Shown here piece after piece: positions 19,761 to 23,755 of a stretch of DNA of 64,000 nucleotides (positions are counted from its first letter, which is position 1; every line of letters begins with the position of its first letter). The stretch is taken from IMG/VR virus record IMGVR_UViG_3300026549_000895, positions 64,001-128,000 of that record; one strand, given 5' to 3'. This DNA comes from a virus. Taxonomy: Duplodnaviria; Caudoviricetes. The position numbers and the translations under genes are program-made. The notes beneath the pieces are model-generated. The model worked only from the letters and a program-made list of their open reading frames with translations. It made no database searches and was not told the origin of the DNA.

Positions 19761-20183
19761 TTATTCAGGGAATACATAAGGAGTGTCCGAAGGAGAAAAT
19801 ACAACAACAACTGAACCCTCGTCCAGATTCTGTACTTCTTCTCTTGTAGGATCGTGATCCATAACAACCAAATTTTCAAATGGAATACCATTTATCAATT
19901 TCAGATTACCTTGTCTTACATCAGTATCTACATCTATAGAAGTATAACTGGTTGGAGACACAACGAGATACAGATTGTTGTTATTTGTATCATTCAACAA
20001 AGCATTGTGATTATAAACAACTCCTGACTCATAATCTGATATGGTGGCATTACCTCCACCACCTCCGCCTCCACCTTGTCCAATTTCAAGACGTTGAAGT
20101 TTTAAAGTTAATTCTGCCAATAGAGATTGATTTCTCGCAAAAGCAGTAAGGAAATCTCTGAAAATTTGTTCCATATAATTCAA
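19761..20183 (-). CDS. hypothetical structural protein with a poly-Gly linker
   Basis: 140 aa, first gene of the minus-strand structural operon. Confidence 0.6.
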   Translation of the reverse strand: MNYMEQIFRDFLTAFARNQSLLAELTLKLQRLEIGQGGGGGGGGNATISDYESGVVYNHNALLNDTNNNNLYLVVSPTSYTSIDVDTDVRQGNLKLINGIPFENLVVMDHDPTREEVQNLDEGSVVVVFSPSDTPYVFPE

Positions 20184-20214
20184 CTCACTTTCTGTGAAAT
20201 TTAACCAATCGGCT

Positions 20215-20226
20215 TACGATTCCGTC
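20215..20226 (-). promoter_or_regulatory. putative late promoter GACG-N6-TA
   Basis: GACGGAATCGTA upstream of the structural operon; same spacing as other copies. Confidence 0.5.
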
Positions 20227-20257
20227 ACTCTCAGGAAAAAAGAAGAAAAAAAGAAAC

Positions 20258-20275
20258 GCCTCCCTTTCGGGAGGC
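20258..20275 (-). terminator. terminator of the tRNA/ncRNA operon
   Basis: GCCTCCC-GAAA-GGGAGGC followed by a long U-tract on the minus strand. Confidence 0.85.
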
Positions 20276-20293
20276 ATAACTTTAATCATTCAT

Positions 20294-20368
20294 TGGTGAC
20301 CCGTACGAGAATCGAACTCATGTTTCCGGGATGAAAACCCGGCGTCTTAACCGCTTGACTAACGGGCC
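20294..20368 (-). tRNA. tRNA-Glu(TTC)
   Basis: Cloverleaf; anticodon arm CCGGG-TT TTC AT-CCCGG; TTCGA T-loop; encoded CCA. Confidence 0.95.
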
Positions 20369-20373
20369 ATATA

Positions 20374-21307
20374 GACGCCGTGATAGTTTCACGACGTCCA
20401 TACCGCTTCGGTTATTGATTGCTGGGCTAACCAAACCCAGCTGGTCAACATCATAAGTCATTACCTCATGATGTTGATATATTTGATTGATGATATTCTT
20501 TCATGACGTAAGCATGAGGGTTGTGGGACAAGTCCTAACCTTTCATACTCCTCTTACTTGAACTACACATCGCATTTGTGGTGACGCCAACGACCGGGTC
20601 ACATCTGCATCAATCGCATATACTAATCTTACAGAGGAATTACGAAACAACCAACGTTTCCACCAACCTTGCTAACCAAAGTGACGAACTTTGGCTTTCA
20701 TGGTATGCGAAGCTTATAAACCAATACCAAGGACATTTGTTACGACATATAGATTTAACGTACATGCACGGAGCATCATATGCCGTGTAAGATTATAAGT
20801 TTGAACTATGATTCGCTACTAACGATGTGGCCACCATCTGGACCAAGATCATCGCCGTCATAATGGGTTAGTTAATTCCCACACACCGTCACGACCATTA
20901 ACCTATAATCTCCGAAAGCTATATATCATTTCAAGACAGTCGGAAGTCCTCAGGTGTGTTCAAACTTTGAGAAGCATCCATCGGTTCCGGATTCCTTTTT
21001 ATAACGCACATGGTGAGCGTACCCTGTGATGCTTCTCTATGGGTCGGGGTATCATGTAGGTATGACAAGGTTTCCCTATATGCCAATTATGGACACAATA
21101 CCCCACTGGTCCGGAGTTTCTTATCTGGGTCATTGCAAAGAAGCTTTTCATTATACTAATCAATTGACATACGATTCAATCAACGCCGTATAATGATTCC
21201 AGATCTCCGGTGGTATGTATCAATAATATGTAATTCCTATATACTACGTTGAGGATCTTGGGATCAACGGACCCGTGCTGGAACCGGTCTTCTTATTATC
21301 GATACAT
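20374..21307 (-). ncRNA. about 930-nt structured noncoding region made of abutting closed-stem domains
   Basis: No credible ORF; GC higher than flanks; ten consecutive inverted-repeat-closed domains between two tRNAs. Confidence 0.7.
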
Positions 21308-21383
21308 TGGCGTCTGATGTAGGACTCGAACCTACGACAACGTGATTAACAGTCACGGGCTCTACCTGCTGAGCTAATCAGAC
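21308..21383 (-). tRNA. tRNA-Asn(GTT)
   Basis: Anticodon arm CGTGA-CT GTT AA-TCACG; GGTTCGAGTCC; CCA. Confidence 0.95.
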
Positions 21384-21541
21384 ACATATAATTTTCCATT
21401 ACTTCAATCCCTGACCACAGGTGCAATTATGGTCTTCCAGAAACATTCATTCAGAGCTATAGTGAATGACATTCAGTGTTTTCCTATTTAAACTATTAGG
21501 ATTGAATAATGGATGACGTTTGTTTCGTAAGCAACAAACGT

Positions 21542-21628
21542 TGGTACCTGAGGTGGGACTCGAACCCACAGTTGTCTTTCGACACTTGATTTTGAGTCAA
21601 GCTCCTAAACCAATTCGGATACTCAGGC
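21542..21628 (-). tRNA. tRNA-Leu(CAA)
   Basis: Anticodon arm CTTGA-CT CAA AA-TCAAG; long variable arm; CCA. Confidence 0.95.
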
Positions 21629-21641
21629 ATGTAAAAATATA

Positions 21642-22080
21642 TTTCAACCCGCGTGTGCCAGGGGGATGGTCTTATTATTGCCATCTTTTAAACTGTCTGT
21701 AGAATGACTGTTAAACACACGCGGGAGAAATAACAAGGGCTCCACGGGGCGTAGGGATAATGATAACTACATTTGGCTGTTCTTTTCCTTTCTGAATTGA
21801 TGGATTTAAACTTCCAAAGTGTTCATTGCCCCGTGGTGCCGCATTTCATTTTGTGGGTTGCAATAACCCACGGGAGATGTCGGAGATATAGCTCCGTACA
21901 CACCCATCTTCTTATAATGGAGCCTCTGGCAGTAGCACTCAATGCTGTCTGCTGTATGACTGCATCATGCTTTACACCTGTTCTTCCAGTAGGCATCCTA
22001 CCTCACCCTCCCATTTCTGGAGTGTTGCGTGCACACAACTCGGTGAGTATATTATCACACCATCAGAAAGGACTTTGCAA
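21642..22080 (-). ncRNA. structured noncoding RNA domains upstream of tRNA-Leu
   Basis: Stems CCCGCGTGTG/CACACGCGGG, CCACGGGGC/GCCCCGTGG and GTGGGTT/AACCCAC; GC-rich; no credible ORF. Confidence 0.55.
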
Positions 22081-22111
22081 AGAATTTTCTTTCATCTTTC
22101 TTTTGGTGTAA

Positions 22112-22123
22112 TAAGCAGTTGTT
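22112..22123 (-). promoter_or_regulatory. putative late promoter AACA-N6-TA for the RNA operon
   Basis: AACAACTGCTTA just upstream of the noncoding cluster. Confidence 0.45.
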
Positions 22124-22138
22124 AGTTGATAATATTAT

Positions 22139-22849
22139 TTATACTTTTTTATATTTTTGAATACTCAGATTCGGAATATACAAACCATCTTCAGTTTGTT
22201 CCAATCTATCAAGATAGCCTTCACCTCTTAAAAGTTCAAAAGCAGTCTTGAAACAATACTGACCATTGTCAACTCTTGACAATGATAATTGATCGCCAAA
22301 ATGAGTTTTATCTTTGGTGTACATTCCAGCTGGCGAATAATACACTTCGTAGAAGTGATTGTTGATTTTATAAATATAATCGCATGATGGCTTATCATCG
22401 AATGCTTCCTTTATAAAGGAATACTTGTAGCCTTGTAAACCATTAGTATCTTGCCCATTGATGATAACATGAACAATGGAATCAGTGATTATCATTTGAC
22501 CGTAGTAAACGGTTGTGACTTTCACGTTTTCCATCAGGAATTCATCAAACGGAATTTTGAATGTTTCAAAATCAAGCATCTTTGCAATTCGAGATTGTGG
22601 ATCATATTCCGCATCCTTATCAATAATATGCTCGGATGCTACTGATTTGCATCTCATGCATTTGTTTTCCCAATCAGGGAATAATCTTAAATTGGTAAGG
22701 TGTAATTGTGAAGACCCAATCTTCAAGTCAATATTGACTGTGTAACTGAGTTCTTCCAGATAATCTTCAATTACCTTTTCGGAATTTTTCTCAATATGTT
22801 CCTCACGGAAATATTGCTTCAATTCTTCATTTAAATAGAATCTGTACAT
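22139..22849 (-). CDS. hypothetical protein
   Basis: 236-aa ORF with AAGGTG SD. Confidence 0.7.
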   Translation of the reverse strand: MYRFYLNEELKQYFREEHIEKNSEKVIEDYLEELSYTVNIDLKIGSSQLHLTNLRLFPDWENKCMRCKSVASEHIIDKDAEYDPQSRIAKMLDFETFKIPFDEFLMENVKVTTVYYGQMIITDSIVHVIINGQDTNGLQGYKYSFIKEAFDDKPSCDYIYKINNHFYEVYYSPAGMYTKDKTHFGDQLSLSRVDNGQYCFKTAFELLRGEGYLDRLEQTEDGLYIPNLSIQKYKKV

Positions 22850-22873
22850 ATTATATCACCTTTCATTTCTTAA

Positions 22874-23755
22874 TTAGTAAAATTTAATAGGGAATTGACG
22901 ACCATCAGCAGTAATTACAATACCCTTATTTTCATCATGCTCGATTATAGGTGTTTGCGGTAAAAATGGATAGTCCGGGATTTCATTACCATTTTCATCG
23001 TACGCTTTAAAAACATACTTATCCATTTTAATTTCACCAAAAGGAGTATTCTCTTGTACTTCTTCTTTCACTGCGTATATGGGTACATTTTGACATATGT
23101 CAGGCTTGGAATTGCCGATCTTGAATATAGAATCAAGTAAACTTCCTATATCTGTCTCTTTCGTATCTTTATCTGGGATATTTTCATTAACATCTTCGGA
23201 GTCATCATATATTCCGGACTTCATCAATTTTCGTATAATGGAGAAATATTTCTTCATAGTTTCGGAATCAAATGCTAATGGATCTCCTGATATCAGCAGT
23301 TTATATTCGGACACTGTTAGTATGTCCATGACTTTTGCATGACGATTTACATATCTTCCATATGATATAGGAGTGAATACATCTAATATTGGTTCTCCAA
23401 TAAAACCATGAAGAAGCCATTTGTTATTTAGGCGATCATTCACAACTAAATATTCGCCTATGTTTTTCATTTCTTTTCTCTTGATTTCTGGTACCACTTC
23501 TCCGACGGGTTTCTTTCGTTGTTCAATATCATACAATGCGAGTGATCTAAGCCTGGTATATTCGGATATATTGTCAATATTGTGAGGATCCATTCCTCTT
23601 TTTCTGAGAAAATCACGTTCGGATTGTGTGAGCATATTGCCATCGCCGATGTTAACACCGTTACGTAGATTAACATCGCATTGTATAAATTGGCGAACTG
23701 TTTCGAAATCAATTCCGCCAAGATGTGTTTTTGAGCCGTATGGATTATTATTCAT
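22874..23755 (-). CDS. hypothetical protein
   Basis: 293-aa ORF with AAGGA SD. Confidence 0.7.
   Translation of the reverse strand: MNNNPYGSKTHLGGIDFETVRQFIQCDVNLRNGVNIGDGNMLTQSERDFLRKRGMDPHNIDNISEYTRLRSLALYDIEQRKKPVGEVVPEIKRKEMKNIGEYLVVNDRLNNKWLLHGFIGEPILDVFTPISYGRYVNRHAKVMDILTVSEYKLLISGDPLAFDSETMKKYFSIIRKLMKSGIYDDSEDVNENIPDKDTKETDIGSLLDSIFKIGNSKPDICQNVPIYAVKEEVQENTPFGEIKMDKYVFKAYDENGNEIPDYPFLPQTPIIEHDENKGIVITADGRQFPIKFY

Follow-up and report, generated by a model that had tools for sequence, protein, structure and literature searches.

Small stable RNAs that are not tRNAs have been described from the tRNA region of phage T4, namely rnaC and rnaD (species 1 and 2 RNAs), and their role is unknown (PMC3014915, PMC9697503). 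Large structured non-coding RNAs of the GOLLD and ROOL classes often adjoin tRNA genes and occur in phages and prophages (PMC5737381), and the long non-coding RNAs of phage K also adjoin tRNA genes (PMC9241854). Here we describe an array of structured RNAs in the uncultured jumbo phage represented by the 239,830-bp IMG/VR virus record IMGVR_UViG_3300026549_000895 (CheckV completeness 89%). The 64,000-nt stretch analysed, hereafter the window, comprises bases 64001-128000 of that record. An original prediction, made from the letters of the window alone, had drawn ten back-to-back domains on the minus strand beside tRNA genes, and had read them either as a polycistron of small RNAs or tRNA acceptor mimics, or as one large GOLLD/ROOL-class RNA. 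The array (domains D1 to D10, window 20369-21307) is a real, selected and modular RNA operon: compensating mutations preserve the folds and entire units turn over between strains, and the units are therefore working RNAs. We give a probability of about 55% to the reading that 20256-22114 (minus strand) forms an operon of three tRNAs and at least ten (about 16 with an upstream block) independent structured RNAs, which would be diced by RNase P and act in trans as tRNA-end look-alikes.

Two further systems are relevant to the comparison. The acceptor/T-arm minihelix of tRNA is a model substrate of RNase P and of the CCA-adding enzyme, and the acceptor/T-arm stack is what both enzymes measure on a tRNA. 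In mitochondrial 'tRNA punctuation', boundary elements shaped like tRNAs allow a polycistronic precursor to be cut into its parts by RNase P and RNase Z. The present array likewise has boundary elements at the unit ends of a presumed long precursor. Here, however, the punctuating helix belongs to the product itself, and the products are phage non-coding RNAs.

In the T4 genome (NC_000866), as read directly, tRNA-Arg is followed on the same strand by 1 nt, rnaD (119 nt, ending in CACC and then A), 6 nt and rnaC (139 nt). The latter keeps a canonical T arm (GGTTCGAATCC) and folds with a z score of -4.6. T4 and the present phage thus have in common a non-tRNA RNA with a CCA-type end, directly 3' of a tRNA, on the same strand and within a few nucleotides of it. 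The differences are considerable. There are at least ten units here against two in T4, in an array five times larger; none of them has the T arm seen in rnaC, and they reach 173 nt with four-way junctions and behave as exchangeable cassettes. No sequence homology connects the two sets, as a blastn search of 50,697 phage records with the 1911-nt stretch returned tRNA matches only. The T4 pair rnaC and rnaD is the closest known case, and we regard the present array as a variant of that kind which belongs to no Rfam family. With more than ten units, defined boundaries, selection on structure and natural single-unit knock-outs in sister phages, the locus is a much richer natural example than that of T4.

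Self-closed domains between the tRNA genes

The array lies in the longest stretch of the genome free of open reading frames (ORFs), bounded by the stop of a 236-aa gene (22139) and the start of a 137-aa gene (20174). The minus strand of this stretch has no coding capacity: there are no frames of at least 60 codons under code 11 or with TAG read as Q, and code 4 gives frames of chance length only. Protein coding under these alternative genetic codes was rejected, as no credible frame was found. The 939 nt from tRNA-Asn to tRNA-Glu have a minimum free energy (MFE) of -300.9 kcal/mol as compared to -248.6 +/- 7.3 kcal/mol in dinucleotide shuffles (z -7.1), which is clearly better than the shuffled controls, while the complementary plus strand reaches -259.3 (z -3.8). 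Top-level domains with at least eight uninterrupted closing pairs number eight in the real sequence and 1.1 +/- 0.9 in 100 dinucleotide shuffles, none of which reaches eight. Stems followed by CCA number four against 0.11 per shuffle, and again none of the 100 shuffles reaches the real count. The minus-strand reading has many G-U pairs, which together with the strand asymmetry favours a minus-strand RNA over DNA hairpins.

Domains were called by span-limited MFE folding over the whole 1955-nt spacer, and D8 was also read directly from the sequence. All ten were recovered where they had been predicted, with shifts of +/- 1-8 nt at D7-D10. D1 (21211-21307; all coordinates in this section are on the minus strand) consists of a 13-14-bp terminal helix enclosing three inner hairpins in a four-way junction and ends in RCCA, the tail being ACCA or GCCA across the relatives. 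D2 (21107-21210) has a 12-bp terminal helix (6+6 with a 6-nt bulge), a long inner hairpin and a 3' ACCA, and D3 (21040-21106) a 13-bp terminal helix followed by ACCCA. The next three units are closed differently: D4 (20968-21039) by a 10-bp helix and a single A, D5 (20796-20967), a 172-nt four-way-junction RNA, by a 10-bp helix and a single A, and D6 (20623-20795), a 173-nt multi-branch RNA, by a 9-10-bp helix and a single G. This 3' end of helix plus one purine is found in all alleles of D4, D5 and D6, the divergent ones included. D7 (20477-20622) is followed by the 35-nt D8 (20442-20476; 12-bp helix, 7-nt loop and ACCA). D9 (8-bp hairpin at 20421-20441 and a small hairpin) and D10 (10-bp hairpin at 20374-20398) occupy 20369-20441 and lead into tRNA-Glu. 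There is no spacer at any unit junction. No two units share a terminal helix, each occurs only once in the 240-kb genome, and no internal motif common to the units was found.

The three tRNAs flanking the domains on the same strand, tRNA-Leu(CAA) at 21542-21628, tRNA-Asn(GTT) at 21308-21383 and tRNA-Glu(TTC) at 20294-20368, were identified by both ARAGORN and Rfam and have an encoded CCA. Only one other tRNA, for Gln, is present in the genome. Even at E<=10, ARAGORN and the Rfam tRNA model (RF00005) matched these three tRNAs and none of D1-D10, in agreement with the predicted lack of a canonical T-loop or anticodon arm. The Rfam scan that the original prediction called for (cmscan of the window at the gathering score, and of 19900-22500 with permissive filters and a cutoff of E<=10) gave only tRNAs and chance matches, with no full-length match to a known family. 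The models for tmRNA, Y RNA/YrlA, 6S, RNase P RNA and HEARO/omega RNA gave no match either, and ARAGORN found no tmRNA. The locus thus holds several new structured RNA folds absent from Rfam, D5 and D6 foremost.

The surroundings of the array, and the strong structure of the entire stretch, are also what would be expected of one large ornate GOLLD/ROOL-like RNA of about 0.9-1.9 kb, in which the domains are arms of a single tertiary assembly with the tRNAs embedded or adjacent. The permissive Rfam scan, however, gave no covariance-model match to these classes. Moreover, the centroid fold consists of local domains only, without cross-domain helices, and internal junctions carry CCA tails.

The structured region extends beyond tRNA-Asn. 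A 26-nt hairpin starts at the base after the CCA of tRNA-Leu, a junction found also in two of the sister phages described below (L023 and L024), and is followed by a 119-nt closed domain with a 9-bp closing helix (21384-21541 together, by span-limited MFE). The 490 nt 5' of tRNA-Leu are as structured as the main array (z -6.9), and five closed-stem domains of about 63, 46, 80, 183 and 93 nt make up this upstream block (21640-22114), which is partly kept in L016, L019, L020 and L024.

Unit exchange and compensatory change in sister phages

Nine sister loci (L016 and L018-L025), with differing versions of the spacer, were found as contigs encoding the flanking 137-aa protein, and animal-gut metagenomes are the origin of the identical and near-identical contigs. 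The samples containing this phage include the wolf-gut WOLF17 assemblies and SRR/ERZ runs. The differences between the sisters respect the domain borders. L020 and L023 lack exactly the 104 nt of D2 (CCGGAG to CTCCGG-ACCA), and L016 and L018 exactly the 67 nt of D3 (GTGGGG to GACCCA). Where the window has D6 and D7, L019 has divergent closed-stem units of similar build, that in the place of D7 being a shorter, 89-nt unit of different sequence. L024 and L025 carry a 152-aa ORF in place of D8-D10 (no Pfam or PHROG match for the L024 protein) and an extra tRNA-Leu(TAG) between tRNA-Asn and D1. The first base of D1 directly adjoins the CCA of the preceding tRNA, be this Asn, either of two Leu(CAA) alleles or Leu(TAG), and the D8 junction is kept in seven relatives. 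All breakpoints of these unit changes are unit boundaries. The array is thus built of cassettes, tRNA and non-tRNA alike, which can take one another's place.

Exchange is seen also within a unit. The closing helix and the 5' half of D7 are invariant, and its inner 3' arm (window 20515-20565, minus strand; alignment A1 columns 73-125) is represented by three unrelated alternative cassettes among the relatives, a design of constant scaffold and variable arm. The interior of D4 is shorter in L016.

Such turnover bears directly on the GOLLD/ROOL alternative. Close relatives lack D2 or D3, have other units for D6 and D7, or have a protein gene for D8-D10; loss or replacement of whole domains should not be tolerated by a single obligatory fold. 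An array of self-closed dispensable units is difficult to reconcile with one conserved fold, and we consider this half of the original prediction quite unlikely.

Substitutions inside the units point to selection on base pairing. In D5, eight pairs have changed on both sides, four of them in the 10-bp closing helix (AAGTTTGAAC/GTTCAAACTT in the window and GAATTCAAAC/GTTTGAATTC in L019). None of 500 shuffles reaches this number, slid controls give 0-1, and 94.5% of the cells are paired. When D6 is aligned with its divergent L019 homologue, there are 17 double-changed pairs and 95.7% pairing (0/500 shuffles; slid controls 0-5). The terminal helix of D2 shows a UA-to-GC compensatory change and two changes passing through G-U, and the closing helix of D4 shows GC-to-AU and CG-to-UG changes. 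The covariation among related phages that the prediction had proposed as a test is thus present in these four units. The apical loops of D6 (e.g., TTCGTCA) are fixed while its stems covary, which points to contacts in trans. Eight nucleotides of a D1 loop are complementary to D5, but this candidate contact was dropped, as only one side has changed in L019.

These data also speak to the possibility that the array is evolutionary debris, i.e., decayed tRNA genes, homing-endonuclease scars or MITE-like inserts with terminal inverted repeats and ACCA target duplications. ACCA does occur on both flanks of D2, an HNH-NUMOD4 endonuclease gene lies inside the tRNA-Glu of L024, and a tRNA-like remnant similarity is found at 21939-21970. 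Compensatory and G-U changes that keep the pairing are, however, not expected from a transposase site or from neutral decay, and the excess of structure is strand-specific. Unlike MITEs or other small transposons, the units have no copies sharing terminal inverted repeats: every terminal helix is different and there is no second copy of any unit in the genome. Debris is the least probable of the explanations and we regard it as very improbable.

It should be noted that the locus is not hypervariable relative to its flanks, a notion that was rejected. The aligned RNA blocks of the sisters are 90-95% identical to the window, a value between those of the flanking genes, i.e., 84-93% for the 1056-aa tail-protein gene and 98-99.5% for the 137-aa gene, the latter figures coming from relatives that were fetched via that identical protein. 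It is the presence or absence of units, not the substitution rate, that is unusual.

Processing and possible roles of the units

We propose that one minus-strand transcript carries the tRNAs and the head-to-tail RNA units and is closed by the intrinsic terminator found 3' of tRNA-Glu (20256-20277, minus strand; 9-bp GC-rich stem and T run), where the RNA operon ends. RNase P of the host would cut at the 5' end of each unit and so dice the precursor into small RNAs. Since the units abut with zero spacer, a single cut at the 5' end of one unit would at the same time leave the preceding unit with its CCA-3'OH (or discriminator) end. The released products would then present tRNA-like CCA ends in trans. 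The zero-spacer CCA junctions provide a built-in processing logic that can be tested.

The sequence supports mimicry of the acceptor end, as far as can be judged from geometry. The helix and CCA of D1, D2, D3 and D8 (12-14 bp) have the dimensions of the acceptor/T-arm stack of tRNA. D8 matches the minihelix exactly (12 bp, 7-nt loop and ACCA, 35 nt in all), although its loop is not a T-loop, and D1-D3 combine 12-14-bp terminal helices and a CCA end with 40-70 nt of unrelated structure atop the helix. In its treatment of non-tRNA substrates, a published account has bacterial RNase P recognising and cleaving a helix followed by a 3' RCCA (PMC12710915). With the minihelix taken as a coaxial helix of about 12 bp plus 3' RCCA, the values are 12 bp in D8, 6+6 in D2, 13-14 in D1, and 13 followed by ACCCA in D3. 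No synthetase identity set, such as G3-U70, was recognised in the unit sequences.

Between the two readings of the original prediction, the polycistron of acceptor mimics is the better one and is partly supported, because the units are independent, unit insertions and deletions are exact at CCA junctions, helices of 12-14 bp are followed by CCA, spacers are absent and there is one terminator. Its suggestion that the units might be decoys for anticodon nucleases found no support. No unit has an anticodon arm, so they cannot decode, and such a role is unlikely.

Several observations weigh against the diced polycistron. D4-D7 lack a CCA. D1, D3, D8, D9 and D10 hardly vary among the relatives (97-100% identity in all), which leaves little or no covariation support, and their folds therefore rest on thermodynamics and geometry; D8 even has a C-A mismatch in four relatives. 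The best sigma-70-like match of the region, TTGAAT-18-TATAAT (10/12), lies within D2 (window 21150-21179, minus strand) and could be an internal start site or chance, so that the operon may give rise to several transcripts. So far the family is known from one narrow phage lineage only, the D6 covariance model having no match in the nearest distant relative. Finally, no CCA-adding enzyme, RNA ligase or RtcB was found in the phage, and there is thus no tie of this kind to tRNA-end biology; the search with RNA_lig_T4_1 gave no match either, but was run without a positive control.

An alternative that keeps the operon and dispenses with free products is that the units are cis-acting elements. They would serve the three tRNAs only, by helping them to fold, by spacing or protecting them or by timing their maturation, and would do nothing once released. 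Zero spacing inside a tRNA operon fits this idea, and D9, D10 and the hairpin after tRNA-Leu do resemble processing or protection signals and may act as such. On the other hand, for three tRNAs, about 1.6 kb of multi-branch structure that is both conserved and covarying seems out of proportion, and 172-nt covarying four-way junctions with conserved loops are poorly accounted for. The fixed apical loops of D6 point to contacts in trans, and loss of a unit leaves the neighbouring tRNAs in place. We therefore regard a purely cis-acting role of the array as unlikely.

If, as the polycistron reading has it, the units are released with CCA ends, they would constitute a family of non-decoding tRNA-end mimics and give access to what phages gain from imitating the acceptor alone. 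One speculative role, which we hold to be improbable, is that of a phage counter-defence battery, in which the diced anticodon-less helix-plus-CCA RNAs soak up host factors acting on the tRNA 3' end. The targets could be, e.g., toxins that pyrophosphorylate, extend or cleave the CCA or the acceptor end, or the enzymes that process it, and the turnover of cassettes between strains would reflect an arms race. Were this true, the RNAs would represent a new class of RNA anti-defence, and RNAs of the T4 rnaC/rnaD type would at last have a function.

Genomic surroundings and related loci

A candidate sigma-70-like promoter, TTGCAA-18-GATAAT with TG, was found by consensus scan at the head of the non-coding stretch (22051-22080, minus strand). 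It is a weak candidate, as 7.6 sites of this kind would be expected in the region and the scan gave 13. Sister phages differ in their gene content upstream of the operon (window 22139-23755 compared to L016:2871-4496 and L019:2734-4368): they lack the 293-aa gene of the window, and in them a non-homologous gene of 294-297 aa separates the 236-aa gene from the RNA operon.

The tRNAs of the operon vary as well. Both tRNA-Asn and the spacer that follows tRNA-Leu are missing from L016 and L018, with the breakpoint in the common T-arm sequence GGTTCGAGTCC (L016:4849-4935 compared to window 21308-21628), which suggests a deletion through recombination between two tRNA genes. L019 and L020 have a different, 85-nt tRNA-Leu(CAA) allele, and a divergent tRNA-Glu allele is present in most relatives. 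In L024, a homing-endonuclease gene of the HNH-NUMOD4 type (348 aa; L024:2146-3346) lies within the 3' acceptor strand of tRNA-Glu, and ARAGORN no longer calls this tRNA.

No relative among cultured phages came up by blastn, or by tblastn using the flanking proteins. In IMG/VR, neither exact D1 and D10 words nor the neighbouring 236-aa protein retrieved further relatives, and a search of genome contigs gave no match that would point to a host. The D6 covariance model detected no paralogue in the phage's own genome, and a distant relative (G001, IMGVR_UViG_2061766007_000342) yielded no homologues by DNA comparison or with that model.

Outside the window, an 822-nt ORF-poor stretch contains the fourth tRNA of the genome, tRNA-Gln(TTG), and a domain of about 120 nt that begins right after the CCA of this tRNA and is closed by GGTAAC/GTTACC (G000:C1:218600-218792). 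The design is that of the array, here repeated at another site.

In the distant relative G001, nine tRNAs are embedded in ORF-free, over-structured stretches of 1.1-1.6 kb with no detectable homology to the present units. Two ORF-free stretches flanking its tRNAs (L036:817-1610 and L030:1591-1803) contain eight copies of a 23-24-nt motif, GAWGCAG-N7-8-RGWTMCWTC, which was found neither in the other G001 loci examined nor in the genome described here. One of the copies lies within a tRNA-like unit (L036:1090-1224) in which acceptor, D and T arms are retained and about 85 nt replace the anticodon arm.
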